Source of the DNA: Podarcis vaucheri | Lineage: Eukaryota | Assembly (NCBI GenBank): GCA_965113315.1 | Contig: OZ220371.1 | DNA: 64,000 nt | Direction: 5' to 3' (one strand) | Shown here: piece by piece, positions 1 to 55,414 of the stretch | How the letters are laid out: each line of letters opens with the position of its first letter | How positions within the stretch are numbered: the stretch's first letter is position 1 | Made by a program: the position numbers and the translations under genes | The notes under the pieces: generated by a model | Seen by the model: only the letters and a program-made list of their open reading frames with translations | The model's database searches: none | What the model was told of the DNA's origin: nothing

Positions 1-1483
1 ATTTCTTCTAATAGTGAATCTGACTGATAAGAGTGCCAGTTTGGCACCAAAAAATGGACACCCCAAAAGACAGTTAGATGTTCCTCCATACTCAAGGAAC
101 TCCCTAGATGTTTAGAAGTATGCAACTTTGTAAAGTAAAAGAACATAATGTCTGAAAACCAGAAGAACCTTTGAGTTTCCAGGAGTTTATGAAATGTTGA
201 GGTGTTAGCTGAGAAAAAGAACCCTGGGGTGCGTGGCAGAAATGAGAATGAGCTTGCTCAGACCCCTTGCTTTTGGAAACTTTGATATCTCTGTGGTAGT
301 TTTTGTTATGCGAGTGGTGCCACCGTACCCTCCAACATGTCCCAGTGCAAAACCAGGCCACATGTCTTCTGGAGCGCGCTCCTGTGTGAGTCATGTGACC
401 CACGCAAGCGCATGGCATCCAAAAACACATGTTTTGGGATGCTGCGATCTCATTTGGTAGGATCCATTCCTTTAAGGATCCTTAAGCCATTTTAGGCTTT
501 ACAAGTAGCCATCTCCTCAAATGTTGCTCAGAAATGAACCAGGAGTCAGTGCAGCTGGTACAGCCATAATGGTATAATACACTCCAAGCAACAGCCTCAT
601 TGGTGCATTCTGTAATTGCTGTACCAGCCTAGCAGTTTGCTTTATAGCTCAGCTACCATATGGTTGCTTGTTTTATTCCAAAATGTCTACAAACAAGCAT
701 ATCTGCACAATTCTTTCCCCCTCATTGCCTCCCCTTCACCTTGAAATTCCAGTTGCACCTATAATAACCGCTCAATCAAACTTCAACGTAGTGTGAGAAA
801 GCCTGATTGAAATGTTGCAAGCAGGATCCAGCACAATTTCATAAATTATTAGAACAGCAAATGAAAGTATTGGTACAGTCTACTAATCTATTATTGTGTG
901 GTAAATCTGGACTGCGGCATTTGTGAAAGGCATGTCAATGACTCCTAAGTAAGGAATGCCCTATTTGTGTACAGTTTTTAAGGAAGTTTACGTGGAGTGT
1001 TTCATGCTGTCTTCAAGGTTATAGCTGTTCTTTTCAGAGACCTGCTGTAAGAATTGACTGATGTATCACTCAGAGCAGGACCTGCCTGCAGCTGTGCAAG
1101 TATGGCAGGGACCGGGACCCTGGGTGGACAGGCAGCATTGGAAACATCTGCTGCCCCAGCTAGGCATGCACCAGTTTCTGGGGCAGCTCTGTAAAGACTC
1201 CCTGCTCTGGGGTCGGGGCCACCCCTGGCAGGACCAAGGGAGCTGTCCAATTGGGGGCAGCACTTTGGGGTGGAGCAAGGGCATGGGCCAGCCCCCATCG
1301 TGCGGGACAAGTGGAAGTGTGAACGAGCCTTTAGTCCACTAGTTTGTGCAAGCAATTACAATACAGTTGCTCGCAGTTATTTTCAATTCATTCAGTTCTT
1401 TGGATGCAATGCAATTTGTGGCATCAGATCAATCAATGTGTTGTATCCCGAATACTAGTTGAATTTAATTGCCTTTGGAATCA

Positions 1484-1969
1484 ATTGGTGGTATTCAACT
1501 AATTTTTACACAGAGTAAAGGTAAAGGGACCCCTGACCGTTGGGTCCAGTTGTGACCAACTCTGGGGTTGCAGCGCTCATCTCGCTTTATTGGCCGAGGG
1601 AGCCGGCGTACAGCTTCTGGGTCATGTGGCCAGCATGACTAAGCCGCTTCTGGCGAACCAGAGCAGCGCATGGAAACGCCGTTTACCTTCCTGCCGGAGT
1701 GGTACCTATTTATCTACTTGCACTTTGACGTGCTTTTGAACTGCTAGGTTGGCAGGAGCAGGGACCGAGCAACAGGAGCTCACCCCATCGCGGGGATTCA
1801 AACCACTGTCCTTCTGATCGGCAAGCCCAAGGCTCTGTGGTTTAACCCACAGCGCCACCGGCATCCCTTTTACACAGAGTAGACCCATTTAAATTAATCA
1901 ACAGGAAAGTTAGGTCCATTCATTTCAATGGGTCTGCTCTGAGTAAAAATTTGTTGAATACCTTCCAAT
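1484..1969. mobile_element. ~120-bp palindromic MITE-like hairpin element interrupted by a Sauria SINE
   Basis: Arms ATTGGTGGTATTCAACTAATTTTTACACAGAGTAGACCCATT / AATGGGTCTGCTCTGAGTAAAAATTTGTTGAATACCTTCCAAT are inverted repeats once the SINE is removed; sibling copies at 30893-31012 and ~47660-47890. Confidence 0.7.
1518..1867 (-). mobile_element. Sauria SINE, full length
   Basis: Minus strand starts GGGATGCCGGTGGCGCTGTGG (tRNA-like A/B boxes) and ends in an (ACCTTT)-type tail; 14-bp TSD TTTTACACAGAGTA at 1504-1517 and 1868-1881. Confidence 0.93.
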
Positions 1970-3443
1970 GAGACATTACAAACCTGCCCCATTGATTTCA
2001 CTAGGACCTAAGTTCAACTAATTTGGTCTAAATCCAACTAATTTATTTTTTTACTTCCAGTTGAAGTAAGTCATGATTTAAACCCATAGAAACCCATGAA
2101 GCAAGTTAAGTCTCAGATAACTTACCCATTCATTGAAAGCAATCTGTTTTTAGCAGAGGTGGATTTAGGGCAGTGCGACCAGTTCCCCCATACTGGGCAC
2201 TGAGCCTAGTGGGTGCCATAGGCTGGCGCAAATATTGAGGCAGCAGAAGGCAAAAGGCAGAGGGGTGCCAAATTTTGGGTTCGCACAGAGTGCCGCTGAA
2301 ATTTGAAAGACCCAGGTCTGCCCCTGGTTTTAGTCATGATTAACTTTAGCTTAATTGGGCCACTGTGTTTAAGACGGAGCCCACAGCAGGGGCAGCCTGA
2401 GACATTTGGGCACCTGAGGCAAATCACAAACTGGCATCCAGCCCTCTGGCCAGGGAACAAACGTGAGTGAAGATCCACATCAGGAACAAGAGGGGAACAA
2501 ACATCTCCATCGAGAACAAGGGCGAGAGGAGACCAGCACTCTAAGAGAGACCGTCAAGGGGGCCTCCAAGGAGTGCACTGCTGCTGTTGTTGCCATTGCA
2601 GCATCAGGCGAAGCCTTCCCTGGAGGCGGGATCTGCTGTCCCTGTGGATCCTGCCACCTGAAGTGGCCATCTCACCTTGCCTCATGGATGGGCTAGCCCT
2701 AGCCCACAGTCATTTCACTGCACAAAACAACACACACTCCTGGTTTCCTTGTGGGGCCCCTTTGCAATTTTCCATATTCGAACACACACACACACACACA
2801 AAATGCTTTTAAAGGTGTATTAGGAGGCCAGAGATAAAATGTTCATCTTTGATGTTTTATCAATACTTTAGAAGAGAGTGTGAGGTATGAAAAGCTTTCC
2901 CTTATTGAAACCTTCCTTGCATGCCCTTCCTCCTCAAAGTTTTGCCGTGGCTTGAGCAAAGCAGAGAGAAAGAGAGAAATAAAAGCATGTAATTTGCATG
3001 TAATACTAAAGCTTACAGAGGAAAGTTCAGAGGGAGAAATTAGCAAATACATTTAAAATAATACATTCTGCCTGTTTCTTTGTTTGCCTCAGATCACGTA
3101 ATTATGCGGATGACCAGTTGGAAAGGTTCTCTCCTATGGTTAAAGTCGGCAGCCTTATCTAGTGATGGAATTTTCATGCAACAAGGTACAGCTAAAGACT
3201 ATATGGAACTGGCCGAGATGACTGCCAGGATCCGAGACCTGGATGAAGAAGCAATGGAGGAGGACTGGAAAAGATTATTTGCAAAAGTTTTATAAACTAT
3301 ATGAACTATAAGAATTCGCACAAATTGGAAAGATTAGCTCCAGCAAAGAGGACACAAGATATTGAAATTAAATAAATAAATTAATGAAAAGATTAAGGTT
3401 TAAAGGTTGGAAATGTTATTATATTGGCTGTTTAAAGTAAATT

Positions 3444-3808
3444 AAAGGTAAAGGTAAAGGTACCCCTGCCCGAACGGGCCAGTCTTGACAGACTCTGGGG
3501 TTTGTGCGCCCATCTCACATCTATTGGCCGGGGGCCAGCACTGTCTGGGGACACTTCCGGGTCACGTGGCCAGCGTGACAACGCTGCTCTGGCGAGCCAG
3601 AGCCGCACACGGAACGCCGTTTACCTTCCCGCTGGTAAGCGGTACCTATTTATCTACTTGCCCCCGGGGGTGCTTTCGAACTGCTAGGTGGGCAGGCGCT
3701 GGGACCGAGCAGCGGGAGCGCACCCCGCCGCGGGGATTCGAACCGCCGACCTTTCGATCAGCAAGCCCTAGGCGTTGAGGCTTTAGCCCACAGCGCCACC
3801 CGCGTCCC
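3444..3808 (-). mobile_element. Sauria SINE, full length, CpG-rich (young)
   Basis: Minus strand GGGACGCGGGTGGCGCTGTGG...GGTTCGAATCC (A/B box), (ACCTTT)n tail; 13-bp TSD TTTAAAGTAAATT at 3431-3443 and 3809-3821. Confidence 0.95.
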
Positions 3809-3842
3809 TTTAAAGTAAATTGGCAATAAGTAATTTAAACTA

Positions 3843-6800
3843 CCCCTTCATGGATCACTGCCTTGCCGTGGCGAAGGGGCTTGAAGAACTCAGAGAAGCT
3901 ATGAACTACGCCGAGCAGGGCACACAAGATGAACAGGTCATAGTGGAGAGTTTTGACCAAACGTGATCCACCTGGAGTAGGAATCGGCAAGCCACTCCAG
4001 TATCCCTGCCAAGAAAACTCCATGGACAAAGACAACAGGCATATAAAAGTTATGACACTGGAAGATGAGCCCTTCAGGTCGGAAGGTGTCCAACATGCTA
4101 CTGGGGAAGAGCGGAGGACAAGTACAAGTAGATCCAGAGCTGATGAAGCGGCTGGGCCAAAGCCGAAAGGACGCTCAGTTGTGGATATGCATGGAAGCGA
4201 AAGGAAAGTCCAATGCTGTAAAGAAAAATATTGCATAGGAACCTGGAATGTAAGAACCATGAACCTGGGTAAGTTGGATGTGGTCAAAAATGAGATGGCA
4301 AGAATAAATATTGACATCCTGGGCATCAGTGAGCTAAAATGGACGGGAATGGGCGAATTCAGTTCGGATGACTACCATATCTACTACTGTGGGCAAGAAA
4401 CCCGTAAGAGAAATGGAGTGGCCCTCATAGTCAACAAAAGAGTGGCGAAAGCTGTACTGGGATGCAGTCTCAAAAATGATAGAATGATCTCGATATGAAT
4501 CCAAGGCAGACCTTTTAACATCACAGTAATCCAAGTTTATGCACCAACTACTGGTGCTGAAGAAACTGAAATTGACCAGTTCTATGAAGACTTACAAAAC
4601 CTTATCAAAGTGACACCAAAGAAGGATGTTCTGCTCATTATAGGGGATTGGAATGCTAAAGTAGGGAATCAAGAGATAAAAGGAACAACTGGCAAGTTTG
4701 GCCTTGGAGATCAAAACGAAGCAGGGCAAAGGCTAATAGAGTTCTGTCAAGAGAACAAGCTGGTCATCACAAACACGCTTTTCCAACAACACAAGAGACG
4801 ACTCTACACATGGACATCCCCAGATGGGCAACATCGAAATCAGATTGATTATATTCTCTGCAGCCAAAGATGGAGAAGCTCTATACAGTCAGCAAAAACA
4901 AGACCTGGAGCTGACTGTGGCTCAGATCATCAGCTCCTTATAGCAAAATTCAAGCTTAAACTGAAGAAAGTAGGAAAAACCACTGGGCTGGTAAGATACA
5001 ATCTAAGTCAAATCCCTTATGAATACACAGTGGAAGTGAGGAACAGGTTTAAGGATTTAGATTTGCTGGACAGAGTGCCTGAAGAACTATGGATGGAGGC
5101 TCGCAACATTATACAGGAGGCAGCAACTAAAACCATCCCAATGAAAAAGAAATGCAAGAAAGCAAAGTGGCTGTCCAACGAGGCCTTACAAATAGCGGAG
5201 GAGAGAAGGCAAGCAAAATGCGAGGGAGATAGTGAAAGATACAGGAAATTGAATGCAGATTTCCAAAGAACAGCAAGGAGAGACAAGAAGGCCTTCTTAA
5301 ACGAGCAATGCAAAGAAATAGAGGAAAGCAACAGAATGGGAAGAACCAGAGATCTGTTCAAGAAAATCGGAAATATGAAAGGAACATTTCGTACAAAGAT
5401 TACCATAATAAAGGACAAAAGTGGTAAAGATCTAACTGAAGCAGAAGACATCAAGAAGAGGTGGCAAGAATACACAGAGGAATTATACCAGAAAGATATG
5501 GATGTCTCGTACACCCCAGGTAGTGTGGTTGCTGACCTTGAGCCAGACATCCTGGAGAGTGAAGTCAAATGGGCCTTAGAAAGCACTGCAAATAACAAGG
5601 CCAGTGGAAGTGATGGTATTCCAGCTGAACTGTTTAAAATTTTAAAAGATGATGCTGTTAAGGTGCTACACTCAATATGCCAGCAAGTTTGGAAAACTCA
5701 GCAGTGGCCAGAGGATTGGAGAAGATCAGTCTACATTCCAATCCCAAAGAAAGGCAGTGCCAAAGAATGCTCCAACTACCGCACAATTTCACTCATTTCA
5801 CATGCTAGCAAGGTTATGCTTAAAATTCTACAAGGAAGGCTCAAGCAGTATGTGGACCGAGAACTCCCAGAAGTGCAAGCTGGATTTAGAAGAGGCAGAG
5901 GAACCAGAGACCAAATTGCAAACATGCGCTGGATTATGGAGAAAGCCAGAGAGTTCCAGAAAGACATCTACTTCTGCTTCATTGACTATGCAAAAGCCTT
6001 TGACTGTGTTGACCACAGCAAACTATGGCAAGTTCTTAAAGAAATGGGAGTGCCTGATCACCTCATCTGTCTCCTGAGAAATCTCTATGTGGGACAAGAA
6101 GCTACAGTTAGAACTGGATATGGAACAACTGATTGGTTCCAAATTGGGAAAGGAGTACGGCAAGGCTGTATATTGTCTCCCTGCTTATTTAACTTATATG
6201 CAGAATTCATCATGCGAAAGGCTGGGCTGGATGAATCCCAAGCCGGAATTAAGATTGCCGGAAGAAATATCAACAACCTCAGATATGCAGATGACACAAC
6301 CTTGATGGCAGAAAGTGAAGAGGAATTAAAGAACCTTTTAATGAGGGTGAAAGAGGAGAGCGCAAAATATGGTCTGAAGCTCAACATCAAAAAAACGAAG
6401 ATCATGGCCACTGGGCCCATCACCTCCTGGCAAATAGATGGGGAAGAAATGGAGGCAGTGAGAGATTTTACTTTCTTGGGCTCCATGATCACTGCAGATG
6501 GTGACAGCAGTTACGAAATTAAAAGACGCCTGCTCCTTGGGAGAAAGGCGATGGCAAACCTAGACAACATCTTAAAAAGCAGAGACATCACCTTGCCAAC
6601 AAAGGTCCGTATAGTAAAAGCCATGGTTTTCCCAGTAGTGATGTATGGAAGTGAGAGCTGGACCATAAAGAAGGCTGATCGCCGAAGAATTGATGCTTTT
6701 GAATTATGGTGCTGGAGGAGACTCTTGAGAGTCCCATGGACTGCAAGAAGATCAAACCTCTCCATTCTGAAGGAAATCAGCCCTGAGTGCTCACTGGAAG

Positions 6801-7065
6801 GACAGATCGTGAAGCTGAGGCTCCAATACTTTGGCCACCTCATGAGAAGAGAGGACTCCCTGGAAAAGACCCTGATGTTGGGAAAGATGGAGGGCACAAG
6901 GAGAAGGGGACGACAGAGAATGAGATGGTTGGATGGTGTTCTTGAAGCTACTAGCATGAGTTTGATCAAACTGCGGGAGGCAGTGGAGGACAGAAGTGCC
7001 TGGCGTGCTCTGGTCCATGGGGTCACGAAGAGTCGGACACGACTAAACGACTAAACAACAACAAC
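3843..7065 (+). mobile_element. BovB (RTE clade) LINE, full length ~3.2 kb
   Basis: APE endonuclease (GTWNVRTM, GDWNAKVG, SDH) plus RT (QGCILSP, YADD); 3' end GAGTCGGACACGACTAAACGACTAAA(CAA)n; perfect 11-bp TSD AATTTAAACTA at 3832-3842 and 7066-7076. Confidence 0.97.
4052..7054 (+). pseudogene. BovB ORF (EN-RT, ~1000 codons) with a single in-frame TGA at 4496-4498
   Basis: ORFs 3953..4498 and 4610..7054 are in the same frame and read MISI*IQGRPFNITVIQVYAPT across the stop; start ATG assignment (4052) is tentative. Confidence 0.9.
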
Positions 7066-9418
7066 AATTTAAACTAAAATGTAGGTTTTGAAGGTATAAA
7101 AAAAATGCATGAAACAAGGTTATAATTTGCTGAAATTTTATTTTGTTAAGAATGCACTGCGAGGGAGATTCGGGGAAGTCCGATAAATAGATTGGAACAG
7201 GCTTGAAATAACCATTTTCTCTTTTCTTTTCTTTCTTTTTTCTGTAACTGATATTTCTCTGTATAATTTGATGACAAATTTCTTATCTGGAAAAAAAACA
7301 ATAAAAATATTTATAAAAAAAACAAGGTACAGTTAAAGTGTTTAGTGCTGGAGTTGCTTTAGGCTGAATTTAGGGCCTCACATATGCAAATTCTTCTCTC
7401 TCTCTCTTTCTCTCTAATTTATGCACTTCTTCACCATTGTACAGTAACCCTTTCTCCCAGGTTTTCACACACACACACACACACCACAATCCAAAAGGAA
7501 TTTATTCTGTAAATAACTTCCTGCTTTTGCCTTAAAAACATAAAACACAATCATTGTATTATTCTGACTAAATATCAAGCATGAACATTTTAAAAATTGA
7601 AATTGATATCTATCTCCATTCTGAGTCTCATAGATGGTTTCTCAGTATGGGACCTCAATATATCTATGTGTACATGCAAATTACAAAATATGTAGATACA
7701 CAATAATAGTGTGACTAGTTAAAAATCTTTGGGGCGGGGGGGGGAGAAACATGGCTGCCTGTGCCTTTCAGATGTGAAATTTAGGAGGTGCAGAGCATTT
7801 TGTGACATCATGCTTGCCGTACAGGAACTCCTGGGCGCCATTAGCCAAAGTGGTTTTATTTACCCATGCAATTCATTTTCCAAATGCATTAGCATTTGCT
7901 TGTTTTGAAGTTCTCCAGGGTATCTGCAAAGCCGGCTGCCTAGTGGCAGAAAAATCTGTGTCCCTCCGATAGGTGAGTGACTGTGACTCCATCAATCAGC
8001 GCTGAGATGGGAATAAACAAAGGTGTTTCACAGGGATCCTGTGCCTAATGATCAGCAATTATAGGAAGTCAAATTAAGGCGTCGTTTTGTGGGTCTTGTG
8101 AAATTGATTAAGCAAAAAGAATGAGTGTGCCATTTCCCCAATTTATCCTGCTGCTCATTTTCAGTCAGAGCATTATCTCGGTTAACTGATGCAATTAATA
8201 TGAAAATGAGGAAATCATTGTTTAAAGAGATGAGAGGGAAGAGAAGAGGCATGAATGCAGCAGCGGCAAAGAATGAAAGACGCCAGGATGGAAATTTGCA
8301 TAGGTCAATGGTAATGTGATGCATATAGCACATATTCAAAGCTTTACTTGCAGAGTAATACATATCCATTAAATTATCATTACACTGACCTATGTCTGGC
8401 ACAATTCAATATTTCTAACTTCTAATGATAAAAAAGTTAATTAGGCTAAGGTGAAAACCTTTTCTGTGTGGACCAAAAGGAGAACATCAAAAGGGCATGC
8501 AGCCTCCCACTTCGATAAGGCAAGGTAACTTCACTTCCTCTTAATTCAACCTCTCATTAAGCATGGCAGGATTTTGTAGCTTGCCTTCTGTGTGGATTGT
8601 GATTTATTACACTGTCACTACTAATAAATACTCTTTTGACTGTGCAGTTACCGTTTAATATTCTATTTAGAAAGTTTAAGGCCAATTTGCATTGCTAATG
8701 CAATGGCTGGATTTTTAGATATATATTTTTTAAATAACTAACAGTTTCCACCTAAACTGGTTTGTGAAGTGCTGCAGACATCCACGTTCCACGGTCCAGA
8801 TGGCCCACTTTTCATAGCTCATGACTTTTAACTAGGTATGCAGCCAGTCATGCGGCTGCTGGTTCTTCTCATACTCAGCTTTTGCTTTCCAAGGAGATAA
8901 AAGTGCATGTCACCCTCTCCCACTTAGTCTGCATTCTAAGATAAAGATGGTGCTCTGAAATACATGTGTGGGAGAAGAGCATTGGATCTGGGTCCCTGAG
9001 TCATCCTTCGGAAAGCACAGATGCACAAATATGTCACACTGGTCTTCACAGATCCAGAGCCCAGCTCAATACTCAGTCTGGCCAGTGTTGCTTCTGTTCA
9101 GGTTTCCAGCCTGCCTGTCAATCAATTCCACCCACTCACCTTAAATTTGCACTTCTGCACAACCTGGGATTCCCCCAAGCCTGCAGATACCTTCCTCTTT
9201 GGGTGAAGATCAACTGCAGCAGAGAAAATCCACGTGTGTTTTCCTAATCGTGTGTCAGTAACCTGAAAGCTGATTTATATAATTTTTGCAATTTTTTTCA
9301 TTAAAATTTTCAAGCATTTCCCCAATACTCTTCATATCAAATAATTACATTGTTTCATAAGTTGACTTCCCACCCTCACCTCCACAGTGTTTTAAATCAA
9401 ACCTTTTCCACTGCATTA

Positions 9419-9562
9419 TGCTTTTTTTCTTTAAAAAAATACTTAGGGGTACTCTCATTTTCCTACTCAGATTGAAATACTGTCCCTCAATGAGGCCAAA
9501 TTAGATTCTCAAAATGTTTAGGGGTATGCGTACCCCTGCGTCCCCCCAGGAAAAAAGCACTG
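9419..9562. mobile_element. Short non-autonomous DNA element with (CAG)TGCTTTTTT/AAAAAAGCACTG termini
   Basis: Inverted termini and internal AGGGGTA(T/C)GCGTACCCCT; related copy in opposite orientation at 25958-26470. Confidence 0.55.
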
Positions 9563-12095
9563 CTTAATCTATTACAAACAGTAATAGATAGCACCTGTGA
9601 TTTCAGTAATGTGCACTAGTATACTGCTTGTATACATTAAACCACAGTTTATTTAAATTATTGCAGGCATGGAGAATCTCCCACTTGGCCCACAAGGTTT
9701 TGTCAGCAAAGCCATCCCCATGTGCCCTGCAAGTGATACGGTGTATGAGATGCAACTCAGGGGTTGCAGGCACTGCTGATCAGCTGACTGAGGAAATGGC
9801 ATCTTGAAGCAGCATGTAATATGAAGTTCACTGCTACAAGGGGTGAGTTAAAAGTTCCTGGGCAGCCAGACTACATAGCTTTCAGAAAGAACAGCATTCA
9901 CAGCAGTAAGTACAAATAAAGATAATCCCACTATATGCTTCAGGAAACTGCTACTTGGTGCAGAGGCTGGAGAGATGTCTTTCCATCCTATCATCCACTT
10001 TCACGTTACTATCTTGCTACCTTTGCTTTCCAGCTTGAGCTACACATCTGCACAAAGAATGCAAATGAGTGCAGAAAAGAAGAAGCAAAGCTTGCCAAAA
10101 CCAGGAGCTGAGCCGTCTCAGCAGACGGCATTCAGCTGTAGAACAAACAAACAAGAATGCCAAAATCTGACTGATTTTGGAAGGCTGCAAAACTATTACT
10201 TGACAAAGCTGGGACTAGGTCAGAATAAAAGAAGCAAAATAGGATGTGAAAGCTGGCTACTTGGGGGGGGGGGGATCCTATTGGAGCTGCTTAGTAGCCA
10301 GTGGTTGTGAAGGAGAGAAGGAAAGAGGAAAGAGTATCTGAGCCAAGGGATTTTGGGAGGCCATACTGTCTTCCTCCCAGGAAGAGCGTGTCATTAAAGG
10401 GGATGCCATCCAGTAGCTGCAGAAACCTCTGTTGTCGTGGTCAGTTGCCTTGCACAGAAGATGGAAGGAGTATAATCTCACCGTTGGGTTGGGTCAGAGA
10501 ATCAAGGGTTCTGTATCCTAGCATAAATGCCATTAATGGAAGACAGAAATCTGGCTGGTCATAAGCAGAGCCCAGAAGAACCTAGAAAGCAGGACAGGAG
10601 TCTGGGTAGAATCTGAGGGGCCAGGGATGGAACAAATTAGGGATGATGAATGGGGGGTTTGCCAGACCTTCAGGTATTGATTCTGGTTACCTGGCAGAGC
10701 ACGGTTCTACTAGCTGAACCAAGTAAACCACTGGCTATACATCTTGAGAGTGTGGGCCAACCTGCAAGGAAGAAGGAGAATATATATATATCAGTTGGAT
10801 AAACAATATTGAAATTGCTAACAGATTACTAGCCTTAAGATTGAAAGTGTTGATGGATGATACGATAGCAGTCCCCAGACAATCCTCATTACCATTGTAA
10901 ATTATACATCCTAAATGAATTAATCTGTTTAATGCCATCATTGAGTTTACCTTTCACAGCAGCTGCACAGCCACTCTGGGGTTTTGTTGTTGTCTGCTCT
11001 GTGTCAATTACACTAATCAGAAACTCATAGGCTGCCATTCTGGGAGTAATAGATAACAGACTCCTGGAGGAACATCCACCCACATTTAAAATGCCAACAA
11101 ATTTCTGTCCATGGTAATACATTCAGTGAAGTCAGTGGACTTGCCCAGATTTGCCTTCAAGCTTTAGAAAATGGAAATAAATTCATCCATCCAGTAGGGA
11201 TGTATCTATTTCTGCTTTTATTGAGAGGACCAGCTCACTTTGAAGTTTGTGAGGTGATTATGAGGATAACTACCCAGTGTTCAATATAGTCCTCTTAACT
11301 GCTTAATTACCATATGTCTCCAAACACTCCGTAATTAGATAAAAAAATGGAGAGACTGGAAATCTAATTCAATATTTATTGATGTGCTTTGACTTTGCTT
11401 CTTATTCTGTGAGGCTGCTAAAAATGCCTAAGACTTGCATTCGGCACACAGTCGACACACAGTTGACTTTCCACCCCACCCCACCCCGCACCCAAACTCC
11501 TAACAATATCAACATGGAAACTTAACATTGCACCAATACATCAGTTAACAGGGTCATCCTCCCATTGATTCATTCTAGGCCAGAAAGCCATCCTTCTCCC
11601 TACATCATTTATTTCTGCAGCTCTGCATTGTCCGATAGATTTCAATGTATGATTCTGTGCATTTGATATGGAAATATGTTAAAACAAACAAATGACATTC
11701 CATTGAAATTTGTTCTAAGCAATATTGACATTAAAATCTTATTGATGGTCTTACTTTATAATAGCTTAGCTGGTTAATTGGTGGGAGGAAATTTTATTTT
11801 AATTCATCATAACATTTGTATCATACCCTGCAAAAGCACTGCCCAGTGAGAAAAAAAATGTTAATTGTGAGGTTGTAGGTGAGGGGCAGACCTCTTTGTG
11901 TTTATATTTGATTACTTAGCTGGTGAAAAACGTAGGTGGTTAACCAAATGAAAATTCTTAAAGGTTTGCCAGCTCCATCTTTTGCACAAACAATTAGAAA
12001 AAGAATAGGATATCCATGCCCCCACTTTTGCACACACAGAGGCAAATTAAGCTAATTATTTATGAAATAAGTAGTTTGGGTGTTGGGAATGTTCA

Positions 12096-27125: not shown

Positions 27126-27401
27126 ATGTCCAGCAGCGGCAGCACCGTCGCCGCAACAGCAGCACCAGCAGCAGCGGCGGCCTCGGCGGCGACAGCAGCC
27201 TCGCCTCCCGCCCAGCCGCCGCCGCCGCCCCCTCCGCCTCCCCCGCCGCCGCCTCAGCCGCAGCCCCCGCCGCCGCTCCCCGGGACCTCCTCGGCCGCCG
27301 CCGCCGAGCCCGAGCTGGTCTCCCTCATCCTCAACCGCCTCAAGAGCCAAGGCCTCTTCGACCAGTTCCGCCGCGACTGCCTGGCCGACGTGGACACCAA
27401 G
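27126..27401 (+). CDS. BOD1L1: BOD1L1 coding exon 1 (Ala/Pro-rich N-terminus, start of BOD1/Shg1 domain)
   Basis: GCGCCATG start; LKSQGLFDQFRRDCLADVDTK; donor AAG|GTGAGG, phase 0. Confidence 0.95.
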
Positions 27402-28174: not shown

Positions 28175-28277
28175 TTCTCAAATTTGGGTCTCCAGCTGTT
28201 GTCGGACTACAACACTCATCATCCCTAACTAGCAGGGGTGATGGGCGTTGTAGTTTGGAGACCTGAGTTTGAGAAAC
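28175..28277. mobile_element. Hairpin MITE (GGACTACAAC..CATCATCCC family)
   Basis: TTTCTCAAA..GGTCTCCA / TGGAGACC..TTTGAGAAA inverted arms. Confidence 0.65.
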
Positions 28278-28476
28278 AGCCAGTGCAAGCAATATGGAGC
28301 TAGACTTGTTTGAGGCAGCTTCCTGTGCTGCTGTGGCTCGAGGTGTGGAGTAAAAGCTTTGGGTTGGGGTGGGCTGCTGGCAGACTACTGGGCAGAGCCT
28401 GGCAGTGCCTGGCAGTTTGGGATGTGTGGCTTAATGGATGTGGGTTTTTACCTAAAAGTGAAAACAGAGACAAGTA

Positions 28477-28808
28477 CAGTGGTGCCCCGCAAGACGAATG
28501 CCTCGCAAGACGGAAAACTCACTAGACGAAAGAGTTTTCCGTTTTGGAGGCGCTTCGCAAAACAAATTTCCTATGGGCTTGCTTCGCAAGACGACAATGT
28601 CTTGCGAGTTCCTGCTGGTTTTTTCCCTCCCCCCTTTTTCTAAGCCGCTAAGCCGCTTATCAGCTGATCCGATCAGCAGATAAGCCGCTAAAAGCCACTA
28701 ATAGCGCTAATCCGCTAATCCGTCAATGGGCTTGCTTCGCAAGACGAAGAAACCGCTAGACGAAGAGAATCACGGAACGGATTCTTTTCGTCTTGCGAGG
28801 CACCACTG
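28477..28808. mobile_element. Tigger/pogo-like MITE, followed by a templated insert and a duplicated 34-bp terminus (28925-28958)
   Basis: TIR CAGTGGTGCC(C/T)CGCAAGACGAA, TA TSD. Confidence 0.9.
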
Positions 28809-29647
28809 TATTGAGCTGGGCTCTGGATCTGTGAAGTCCAGTGTGACATATTTGTGCATCTGTGCTTTCCGAAGGATGACTCAGGGACCCAGATCCAATG
28901 CTCTTCTCCTACACATGTATTTCAGAACGGATTCTTTTCATCTTGCGAGGCACCACTGTATAAAACAGCTCTTTTCCTTTAATTCTCCACCTCTGTGCTG
29001 TGAATTTGCTCCTTAACCAGAATTTTTAAGGTGAAAGTCGAAAGCATGAGGTGTCCGGTCAAACAGAAGACCTTGCAATCCTAGTTGCCAGGCAATTGAG
29101 AAAGATACCAAAGCTCTGCCCTCACCCGACCACTATTGTGAATACTCACTCATCTCCTGTTTTCCTCTTCCCTAGGCTAGTATCTTAGTGAAATAGATCT
29201 CACTGTGGTAGGAAATTTGTGGGGGGGCTGTATCACTTCAGACTGAAGGTGCAGACTCGTATGATAGAATGATTTGCAATTCAAAAACATGCTTTGTACG
29301 TAGAGAATTAGATGTTGATGAGAACTAGCCTATACTACAAGTGCAAGAGAGTACTCCGTGCTGTTTTTCCAGACAGAGGTGTAGGAACTCACCCTTGTTC
29401 TCTCTCAATGGCTCCCACCTGAAATAAAAGCCATTGTTTATTTAAAACAAATTATGCTAAATTTCATAACAAGCCAACTTCAAGCCATGTCTGGCTTCTT
29501 AAAATTACCCTTGTGTAAACCAGAATCCTCAGGTTGAATATAAAACCAAGCAGGGATTTGATTGAAACAAAACTTTTTCTGTGTGGTATGCAAGCCTGAC
29601 AGTTAGATTGGACTCATTCAGGCTTTTCAACATAGTGCTAAACCTGT

Positions 29648-31085: not shown

Positions 31086-31210
31086 CCTGCTTATCAGAAC
31101 TTGAGGCAGCGGGTGGACAACTTTGTTTCCAACCATCTAGCAACTCATACATGGAGTCCTCACCTGAACAAGAACCAACTGAGAAACAATATTAGACAAC
31201 AGGTTCTCAA
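31086..31210 (+). CDS. BOD1L1: BOD1L1 exon 2
   Basis: TTTAG|CCT; PAYQNLRQRVDNFVSNHLATHTWSPHLNKNQLRNNIRQQVL; AA|GTAAGT. Confidence 0.96.
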
Positions 31211-35408: not shown

Positions 35409-35808
35409 CAGTGGTGCCTCACAAGACGAAAAGAATCCGTTCCGCGAGTCTCTTCGTCTTGCAGCAAGCCCATTAGCGGATTAGCGCTATTAGTTGCTTA
35501 GCGGGCTAAGCGGATCAGCTGATAAGCGGCTTAGCGATCAGCTGATAAGCGGCTTAGCGATCAGCTGATAAGCGGCTTAGCGGATCAGCTGATAAGCGGC
35601 TTAGCAGTTTAGGATCAGCTGATAAGCGGCTTAGCGGCTTGGGGAAAAGGGGGGGAGGGGAAAAAACCCACAGGAACTCGCAAGACATTTTCATCTTGCG
35701 AAGCAAGCCCATAGGAAATTCGTTTTGCGAAGCACCTCCAAAACGGAAAACCCTTTCATCTAGCGGGTTTTCCGTCTTGCGAGGCATTCGTCTTGCGGGG
35801 CACCACTG
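35409..35808. mobile_element. Tigger/pogo-like MITE with expanded internal 23-24-bp minisatellite
   Basis: TIRs plus TA; five GATCAGCTGATAAGCGGCTTAGC units. Confidence 0.9.
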
Positions 35809-35827: not shown

Positions 35828-36124
35828 CAGTGGTGCCTCGCAAGATGAAATTAATCCATTCCGCAAGTCTCTTCGTCTTGCGGTTTTTTCGTCTTGCGAA
35901 GCATGGCTATTGGCGGCTTAGCGGCTGTTAGTGGCTTAGCGGCTATTAACGGCTTAGCGGCTTTAAGAAAAAGGAAACAAACTAGCAAGAACTCGCAAGA
36001 CGTTTCGTCTTGCGAAGCAAACCCATAGGGAAATTCGTCTTGCGGAACGACTCAAAAAACGGGAAACTCTTTCGTCTTGCGCGTTTTTCGTCTTGCGAGG
36101 CATTCGTCTTGTGAGGTACCACTG
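35828..36124. mobile_element. Related Tigger/pogo-like MITE, 19 bp downstream
   Basis: CAGTGGTGCCTCGCAAGA..TCTTGTGAGGTACCACTG, TA TSD. Confidence 0.88.
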
Positions 36125-53078: not shown

Positions 53079-53206
53079 CAGTAGGCACAGCACCTCTGAA
53101 CTGAAGCCCATGGATTGGGGTGGGGAGGTGAGTAGTACGGTCTGCCTGAGGACTGCTTCCTGTGCCCTTGCATAGAAATATTATTTTTCTGTACAAGTTT
53201 CTAGCT

Positions 53207-55414
53207 CAGGGGTCAGCAACCTTTTTCAGCTGTGGGCCAGCGAAATTACAGGAATATCAGCTTATTGTCAATAATTGGGAAAATATATGCACGGTTCTTG
53301 TTAACTAAGCTTACTAAGTGGGCCGAAGAGAACAACCTGATTGGGCCTGAACAAGCTGGTTTTAGATCGAATCAGTCAGCGGTCGATCATGTCTTAGTTT
53401 TATACCACCTTGCCCGGAAATATTCCGCCCCAAATAGAGGCCAACTTTGTGCGGCCTTTATTGATTTAAAGGCTGCTTTTGACAGCATCCCCAGAGGACT
53501 ACTTTGGGGGAAATTAGCACGATGGGGAATAGACAAAAGACTTTTGTGGCTAATAACTAAACTGCATGACGGATCGGCCGCTAGGGTTAGAATCACTCCG
53601 GCAGGCGACCTCTCAAAGCCAGTAACCATCAATAGAGGTGTTCGTCAAGGATGTATCCTTGCTCCGACCCTTTTTAATCTATTTATAAGCGATATGAGGG
53701 TGCCTCTGATAGATTCTCAAGAGATGATCCATGCCCCCCGTCTTGCCCAATATCGTTGCCCCCTTCTACTCTACGCAGATGACGCAGTGATCCTATCTTT
53801 TTCAAGAGTTGGCCTTAGGAGGGCCTTAAAAATTTTTGATGCTTACTGCAAATCAAATTTTCTTACAATTAATCACGCAAAGTCCAAAGTCCTAATTTTC
53901 ACCAAGAGTCGAAAAACCTATAATTGGAGAATAGACGGGAAAGCCATAGACCAAGTTTTTAAATTTCAATACTTGGGTGTCCTCCTCCAACACAACATGG
54001 GCTGGAAGGTCCATCTTGCATATGTATTAAATAGAGCTAAAGCCCTTTCCTTTGCGCTACTGCGTTTTTTCTTTTCAGATGGGGCTTTCCATATTCCATC
54101 AGTGTTAAAAGTTTTCAAGGCAAAGGTGATTGCAACAATAGCATATGCAATCCCAATATGGGGGTCCTTTGTTAATCTAACCCAGTTGGAGGTAATCCAA
54201 AACCAACTGCTAAGAAGGTTGCTAAAACTACCCAGGTGTGTAGGCAATACAGCTATACGACTCGAACTAAATGTGACATCTCTAGAAACTACACTATGGA
54301 AATGCATCCTCTGTTACTGGTTGGCATTATGGCATAAACTCCCATATCTCCACCTGATACAGTGTCTCTGGAGAGATTACTTCCCTAGCCCTTGGGCAAA
54401 AATAATACATGGGAAACTTGTGTCCTTAGGACTATCTCCATCTGAACTATTAAAATTGGATTTAATTTCTGCCAAGAGAATTATAACTCACAGATTAGAG
54501 GAGATCGATTTACAATTTAATATTGCGACAGGTGGTGGCACCTGTTCGCCGATAAACCTTGGCTTAACACCACCAACGAAACTCCCAGCTTATTTAACTA
54601 CCTTATCTGTGGTGACGCACAGGTATGCCTTTATAAAGGCTAGATTCAATGTTTTCCCATCAAATGTGTTGGGTAACAGACTCTCCAACGGACAGATCTC
54701 ACTCCTCTGTGACTGTAAAAGTGGATCTATAGAATCGTTATACCATATAATCTTCTGTTGTCCATTACATTCGGCTCCACGGTCCAAGTTTCTGGCCCCA
54801 TATTTATCAAGAATTGCTGACAGTCCTCAGGAAGCCCAAATAATATACTTATTAAACGACGAAGACTCAAGTAGATCCCTTGCAGTCGCTAGATACCTGA
54901 TTAATGTCTTATTTCATAAGAGGAGAAATGGATCACTGTATGACTCTGACAGCTTAGCCAAACTTAAGAACCATCAATAAGTGCCAGAACTAAGACGCAT
55001 ATCCCCGAGGGATTTGAATTACGGTTGACACAGAGGGAGCTTATTGTATATAGTGTTTACTTAATTGAAGTAAAATTGGTTTTATATGGGTGTTTTAACT
55101 TGGAATTGTTTTAAATTGTTTGTTTATGGAAATCTTGATGTATTGTTTTAGATATGGGCCTATGGCCGTAATAAATCAAATCTGAATCTGTGGGCCAGTC
55201 CACCGTCCCTCAGACCATGTGGTAGGCCGGACTATATTTTGAAGAAAAAATATGAACGAATTCCTATGCCCCACAAAGAACCCAGAGAAGCATTTTAAAT
55301 AAAAGCACACATTCTGCTCATGTAAAAACATGCTGATACCCAGACCGTCTGTGGGCCAGATTGAGAAGGCGATTGGGCTGCATCCAGCCCACGGGCCTCA
55401 GGTTGCCTGCCCTG
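53207..55414. mobile_element. hAT MITE split by LINE insertion
   Basis: CAGGGGTCAGCAAC / GTTGCCTGCCCTG termini; 8-bp TSD TTCTAGCT; intact sibling at 58663-58922. Confidence 0.88.
53241..55187 (+). mobile_element. 5'-truncated young non-LTR retrotransposon, probably RTE-X clade (RT plus C-terminal CCHC knuckle), uninterrupted ORF to 54980
   Basis: NYRNISLL, EQAGFR, FIDLKAAFD, GVRQGCILAP, LYADD, CxC..H....C; AATAAA then short ATCTGA-type repeats; 11-bp TSD CTGTGGGCCAG. Confidence 0.85.

Follow-up and report, generated by a model that had tools for sequence, protein, structure and literature searches.

An inverted 119-bp copy of DNA from 20 kb away between duplicated ends of a Tigger/pogo-type MITE, best read as a one-off repair-mediated duplication in a vertebrate intron

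The window, that is, the whole stretch of 64,000 nucleotides analysed here, corresponds to C28:78926001-78990000 of a 1.61-Gb vertebrate genome and contains a gene whose first three exons match the COMPASS-Shg1 domain PF05205 in order, and which we take to be BOD1L1. The insertion described here lies within intron 1 of this host gene, exon 1 of which ends at 27401 and exon 2 of which begins near 31087 (Table 1). An intronic open frame of 591 aa on the plus strand (window 53205-54980) is presumably LINE reverse transcriptase-like. Downstream of the host gene, a homeodomain is found on the plus strand (L055:2635-2860, ~86.8 kb in window coordinates), presumably that of NKX3-2, and conserved elements upstream would more likely act on NKX3-2 than on the host gene.

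Table 1. Features of the donor and acceptor sites (window coordinates; a dot in the strand column means that no strand is assigned)
Feature	Position	Strand	Remark
Donor segment, intact, single-copy in relatives	8954..9072	+	TA at 9070-9071
Coding exon 1 of the host gene	27126..27401	+	PF05205
Left TA target-site duplication	28475..28476	.	joint 28473->28958 with 3 shared letters in X2, X3, X17
Non-autonomous Tigger/pogo-type DNA transposon (MITE), 332 bp, 22-bp TIRs, TA on both sides	28477..28808	.	
Outer TIR-bounded unit, 482 bp, single-copy Pack-TIR-like	28477..28958	.	no other locus found genome-wide
Subterminal MITE hairpin, 14-bp stem, 8-nt spacer	28759..28793	.	predicted, -13.7 kcal/mol, z -5.5
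First copy of the duplicated MITE end with TA, 36 bp	28775..28810	+	38 bp from 28773 if 28774 was then A
Junction 1, GTA microhomology	28808..28810	+	
Inverted copy of 8954-9072, 119 bp including both microhomologies	28808..28926	-	older donor alleles
Junction 2	28923..28926	+	GA in the present sequence, CAGA when compared with most of the subfamily
Second copy of the MITE end with TA	28925..28960	+	G>A at 28940 (CpG) inside the TIR

The element that hosts the insertion has a TA duplication, TIRs beginning with CAGT and no coding capacity. Since the same TIR was found beside DDE_1 (PF03184) in 6 of the 12 loci fetched (L159-L164; on one side within the fetched flank, frames of 444-584 aa), the MITE is classified as a non-autonomous element of the Tigger/pogo type. 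A genome search with the MITE gave 5,509 candidates, 40 of which were scored, at 96-100%, and the exact subterminal pattern has 5,036 matches in the genome. The 29 closest copies show a median of 4 substitutions from their majority, with no two fewer than 3 apart, and the copy at 28477-28808 has 6 differences from this majority. Judged by these distances, the subfamily is young, with no sign of current spread in the sample of 29 copies. Many pogo/Tigger-type DDE_1 frames without stops are present as well (L153-L164 and the genome table), with recurring lengths of 575 and 631 aa and several equal scores, which suggests that a DNA transposon family has been active recently, or still is, in this genome. 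Elsewhere in the window, two related MITEs of different subfamilies (35409-35808 and 35828-36124) lie 19 bp apart, each with its own TA. A lone 25-bp MITE right end with TA (L194 / L214:148), with no other end within 10 kb upstream, was probably left behind by a deletion or is a short templated insert.

The reverse complement of 8954-9072 is found at 28808-28926, differing at 2 of 119 positions (E 2e-53 in a comparison within the window) and enclosed by a 36-bp direct repeat with 1 mismatch (28775-28810 and 28925-28960); the alignment thus confirmed the structure given in a preliminary description of this DNA, namely an inverted copy set between a 36-bp duplication. The insert is 19,736 bp (19.7 kb) away from its donor, and the captured length is 112-119 bp, varying with the assignment of the microhomologies. 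Since the donor is intact, the piece was copied and not moved. The expectation that the 119-mer should occur at exactly two loci also held in the genome search, which gave 2 matches in 1.61 Gb (2 of 2 candidates; 98% over 119 bp). A repeat query used as control returned 40 of 45 candidates, so that multi-copy sequence is visible to this search. The right TIR of the outer 482-bp unit carries a CpG change.

A chimeric join at a repeat end, made during assembly, would be expected at a repeat boundary, where the structure is indeed located, and would agree with its being missing from all 7 relatives' runs. However, the copy departs from the donor in cis at 2 sites and matches the relatives there, and each copy of the MITE end has a private change against the subfamily majority (28774 and 28940, respectively). 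An assembler's duplicate would be identical to its source, and this copy differs from it; we therefore consider an assembly artefact very unlikely. The inverted 119-bp copy is real in the assembly, young and, as far as the 7 runs show, lineage-restricted.

The order of events was read from relatives. From 24 runs listed, each with at most 0.50 of the words, 7 were aligned (X1, X2, X3, X4, X15, X17 and X19); the acceptor site was compared in X2, X3, X15 and X17 and the donor in X1, X4, X15 and X19. The pre-insertion state, which the preliminary description had proposed to look for, was found in two forms. The TA site is empty in 3 of the 4 acceptor runs (X2, X3, X17), where 28473 is joined to 28958 and 484 bp are skipped, and the contigs of X15 run into both ends of a MITE without insert (28277-28487 and 28941-29450; one run, with no contig across the element). 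The 119-mer is present in X2, X3 and X17 in contigs of 1,785, 1,976 and 2,554 bp whose match is confined to the insert interval. None of the 7 runs yielded a second copy of the 119-mer, contigs showing presence better than absence. At the donor, depth is even and contigs span both borders in X15, X1, X4 and X19, and among the rows listed for these runs neither 8954 nor 9072 shows a joint or a loose end. The empty site together with the MITE without insert implies that the MITE inserted first and the 119-bp piece was added later, the MITE-only state being seen in X15 alone.

These comparisons bear on the proposal that the piece was captured as the flank of a MITE once present at TA 9070-9071. 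In a one-sided ectopic gene conversion, a related MITE at this donor TA would have been invaded from a break in the MITE at 28477-28808, copying would have run on into its flank, and the new end would have returned through microhomology. Long homology would then account for the succession of TIR, TA and donor sequence, and the family is dense, with four full copies in the window. However, a MITE or loose end at the donor was seen in 0 of 4 runs among the rows listed (24 of 109 loose-end rows), the 119-mer lies within long contigs in 3 more runs, and the 6 extra bases that relatives have at this place (TA-CTCT-TA) are unlike an excision footprint of the MITE's ends. Nothing in these runs speaks for flank capture from a MITE, and gene conversion of this kind is highly improbable. 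The 6 extra bases form a short direct repeat at 9069-9077, on the donor side of junction 1, in X4, X19 and one X1 haplotype; the second X1 haplotype, X15 and the window do not have them. This indel was rejected as a trace left by the event, X15 and one X1 haplotype being without the 6 bp and yet without the insert.

The two mismatches are informative in themselves. At 8970 and 9043, the donor reads G and T, respectively, both in the window and in X15; X1, X4 and X19 have A at the two sites, and so does the insert. At 8986 the insert agrees with the window and X15. The template alleles were A8970/A8986/A9043, unlike those now in cis, and the insert, which is free of private substitutions, has a haplotype between the two groups of relatives. 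Since the insert has the relatives' allele at both mismatches, it is a snapshot of an older donor haplotype, and decay of the copy was ruled out as the source of the mismatches on the same ground. Either the homologue would have been the template, or a later crossover within the 20 kb would have replaced the donor. When the donor and acceptor regions are compared for divergence from X15, 4 changes in 730 bp stand against 10-12 in 814 (p 0.08-0.19).

The microhomologies proposed earlier, GTA and GA, are both present at the two junctions as described. The letters shared at junction 1 are GTA, made up of the final TIR base and the TA, and junction 2 shares GA in the sequence as it stands. Because position 28774 is A in 28 of the 29 closest MITE copies, the microhomology at junction 2 was probably CAGA and the duplication 38 bp. 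The insert is without filler at its junctions and without poly(A), AATAAA/ATTAAA or any run of five A or T. This bears on the possibility that a LINE reverse-transcribed an RNA fragment into a staggered cut, the 36-38 bp being a target-site duplication as in a class 1 TSIP. A flanking direct duplication does exist, and the elements inserted in copies of the same MITE family at L165, L199 and L205 are, as we assume, LINEs. However, the missing poly(A), polyadenylation signal and tail repeat largely refute such an origin, microhomology is found at both ends and the donor is nearby non-exonic DNA. The duplication also exceeds the 4-21 nt of earlier cases (PMC2671141), and a LINE-mediated insertion is hardly to be credited.

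The return point of junction 2 falls, in the predicted fold, within the 8-nt spacer of the subterminal hairpin. As a hotspot of breakage this spacer was rejected, with 15 altered versus 5,036 intact copies, and 15 versus 4,258 for the adjacent arm (Fisher p 0.72); it may simply be an unpaired place where a DNA end could anneal, which is a guess. At L165 (C17:1801057), the hairpin spacer of another copy of this MITE is interrupted by a LINE-3'-end-like piece of ~120 bp, presumably CR1-like, which is accompanied by a 4-5-bp duplication. L189 has a short local inversion in the MITE subterminal hairpin, which fits template switching between the hairpin arms. Going by its sequence, 28903-28926 resembles a splice acceptor on the gene's strand, with a pyrimidine-rich stretch followed by TTTCAG, and a donor-like AG/GTGAAA splice motif is found at ~29030, ~105 bp downstream of the acceptor-like end of the insert.

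We consider it probable that a single germline repair event, in which the template was switched twice through short microhomologies at the right terminus of the MITE, produced this structure. A 3' end ...CACTGTA would have been left at the right TIR/TA by a nick, a break or a stalled fork, for which a cut by the cognate transposase and a stall at the folded element are both possible triggers. This end would have primed on GTA of the donor minus strand and copied ~115 nt, after which the new end ...TTTCAGA would have annealed to CAGA in the hairpin spacer, 38 nt inside the MITE. With the sister chromatid or the same molecule as template of this last step, the final 36-38 bp would have been copied twice. 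The same path may be read on the opposite strand with the steps reversed, and SDSA, fork switching and polymerase-theta repair would look alike from the sequence.

Template switching is supported by the microhomology at both junctions, without filler or poly(A) signal, by the intact donor, by the order of events in relatives and by the insert alleles that match those of relatives. The class is moreover common: of 12 low-copy pairs in 1.264 Mb, 2 others are local duplicates with two copies. Microhomology together with a flanking duplication is known from Pace et al. (2009), and a cis bias from Tan et al. (2021). On the other hand, junction 1 lies exactly on the TIR/TA boundary, for which the chance is ~5% for a random break (reckoned post hoc). 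The duplication of 36-38 bp is longer than the 4-21 nt of Pace et al. (2009; PMC2671141), the distance of 19.7 kb is beyond their 5-kb cut-off, past which many cases are retrotranspositions (PMC2671141), and the breakpoints of single-copy Pack-TIRs are skewed to the interior of the element in Tan et al. (2021; PMC8277862). As for the two origins offered in the preliminary description, template-switch repair at the end of a transposon agrees with every test made, whereas MITE-mediated flank capture finds no support, a MITE at the donor having been seen in 0 of 4 runs among the rows listed.

The exact position of junction 1 would also be explained by an aborted one-ended transposition, in which the cognate transposase cut the right end of the MITE and joined its 3'-G to TA 9070-9071, a target 20 kb off and possibly on the homologous chromosome. 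The branched product would have been resolved by copying: from the sister chromatid, the end of the flank would have copied 36-38 nt of the MITE a second time, and it would have annealed at CAGA. Junction 1 indeed reads TIR, TA and donor sequence like a normal insertion joint, and the 21 paired members of the family found in 1.264 Mb have TA at all 42 of their ends. DDE_1 elements with the same TIR (6 of 12 loci) have open frames of 444-584 aa, and the event is about as young as the MITE subfamily with its median of 4 substitutions per copy. However, GTA is also an ordinary 3-bp microhomology, and the donor shows no scar of the event, the 6-bp indel at 9069 being common to runs without the insert. 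A second duplicated right end was found neither among 46 TIR ends (1.264 Mb) nor among 49 loci with altered subterminal sequence (up to 1.5 kb), and synapsis by wild-type mariner transposase is reported to be slow unless the ends are inverted (PMC4013102). One-ended transposition is thus regarded as unlikely.

The 46 TIR ends in 1.264 Mb consist of 21 pairs and 4 orphans, and the doubled end occurs only at the insert locus, the other 3 orphans belonging to longer or cut elements. No upstream right end was found in the 49 altered loci (15 of 15, 30 of 44 and 4 of 15 of three pattern sets); the subterminal patterns detect exact-match copies only, and less than half of the breaks in three 8-nt windows, so that this is a weak bound. 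Short local duplicates are ordinary: 12 low-copy pairs passed the filter in 1.264 Mb, and 2 besides the insert are short duplicates with two copies genome-wide. One is a 61-bp perfect direct duplicate with copies 5.2 kb apart and no flanking duplication (L091:3945-4005 / 9158-9218), the other a 118-bp direct duplicate of 97% identity with copies 1.7 kb apart (L100:1753-1870 / 3610-3728). The remaining 9 of the 12 pairs were dropped, 1 as a genome-wide repeat and 8 because their appearance or their distance marked them as repeats or as portions of larger elements (3 viewed, 5 unviewed). A 468-bp inverted repeat of 99.4% identity, with arms 1.2 kb apart (L072:7527-7994 / 9226-9693), is likely to represent the ends of a retroelement. 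Three short local duplicates per 1.264 Mb scale to roughly 800-11,000 per genome.

It had been suggested that the outer TIR pair could mobilise the captured piece and that the event might record an enhancer-promoter contact. Mobilisation is possible in principle, matching transposase frames being present, but it has not taken place, the piece being found at 2 loci only. Nothing supports the contact idea: other short local duplicates, spaced by 1.7 and 5.2 kb, are found in the neighbourhood, proximity is the published norm for the class of local duplicates, and the haplotype now in cis did not serve as template. The donor lies more than 230 bp outside the block at 7750-8720 on which that idea drew, and the idea relies on a single event at a distance (~20 kb) for which closeness along the chromosome is sufficient. 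The locus is a scar in an intron, of a kind that numbers in the hundreds in a vertebrate genome, and gives no indication of function or spread. As an example it is unusually well resolved, in that the empty site, the MITE-only state and the older donor haplotype are all visible in relatives. If one-ended transposition were true, the insert would be a fossil of half-finished transposition in the vertebrate germline and a transposase-dependent route to single-copy Pack-TIRs; if it were also recurrent, it would give cut-and-paste elements in animals a further way of capturing host DNA, with doubled TIR ends as a searchable mark.

Several known systems resemble the insert in part. The templated sequence insertion polymorphisms (TSIPs) of Onozawa and Aplan (2016; PMC5110952) are likewise germline insertions from an intact donor, and the microhomology is as in their class 2. 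Unlike them as there described, the insert has a flanking 36-bp duplication, of which class 2 has none, it has no poly(A), which class 1 has, and its donor is local (PMC5110952); the polyadenylation signal and poly(A) tail of class 1 and the absent target-site duplication of class 2 thus both fail to fit. Polymerase-theta inserts after Tc1/mariner excision in C. elegans are also templated inserts of the germline at a Tc1/mariner-type site (PMC4490562). In those cases, however, the element is lost and the inserts come from the immediate flank (PMC4490562), whereas the present MITE was retained with a doubled end and the copied DNA lies 20 kb off. A doubled terminus was not found among the papers listed on templated insertions at transposon ends, and the supplementary tables of Tan et al. 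(2021) may contain some.

Pace, Sen, Batzer and Feschotte (2009; PMC2671141) described 1,136 repair-mediated duplications inside human transposons, 824 of them with a donor within 5 kb and 58 of the 1,136 intrachromosomal and farther than 5 kb; microhomology with a flanking duplication occurred in 5 of 39 proximal cases. Like these duplications, which measure 50-619 bp, the insert is a short copy, at least 50 bp long, with one intact donor on the same chromosome, and it lies inside a transposon. It shares with them the hallmarks of repair, namely microhomology and the lack of a poly(A/T) tail, and it is lineage-specific with empty orthologous sites, in a subtype with microhomology and duplication that is already known (PMC2671141). 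It differs in its duplication of 36-38 against 4-21 bp and in its donor distance of 19.7 kb against less than 5 kb, which places it in their "distant" group although its workings are those of a repair-mediated duplication (PMC2671141). Their criteria ask for transposon segments of less than 95% of the consensus that meet within 30 bp, whereas here the first segment is full length and the overlap is 36-38 bp; their pipeline, as published, would skip it (PMC2671141).

Tan et al. (2021; PMC8277862) reported 370 Pack-TIRs in 100 animals, ~two per 10,000 TIR elements and mostly single-copy, with 56.9% within 15 kb of the parent, a cis bias, a median microhomology of 2 bp and capture after insertion of the transposable element; the single-copy ones were ascribed mostly to transposition-independent gap filling. 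Like these, the insert is an internal non-TE piece of more than 100 bp (within the 100-5,000 bp searched) between two TcMariner-type ends, with a cis parent and microhomology, and it was not transposed further (PMC8277862). Its two pieces of the same element each include at least 10 bp of the terminus (28477-28808, 28925-28958), the parent is unique with a length ratio within 80-120% and an identity above 90% (2 loci, 98%), and an orthologous element without capture exists in a relative (X15; one run, no spanning contig). The multicopy form, with the piece at several loci and distinct target sites, does not apply to a piece with 2 loci only. The breakpoints of Pack-TIRs are skewed to the interior with small gaps and the majority lie below 15 kb from the parent, whereas here nothing of the MITE was lost, its end was duplicated, one breakpoint lies at the very terminus and the distance is 19.7 kb (PMC8277862). 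Set against these systems, the inverted 119-bp insert is best read as a one-off repair-mediated duplication that also falls within the search definition of a single-copy Pack-TIR.
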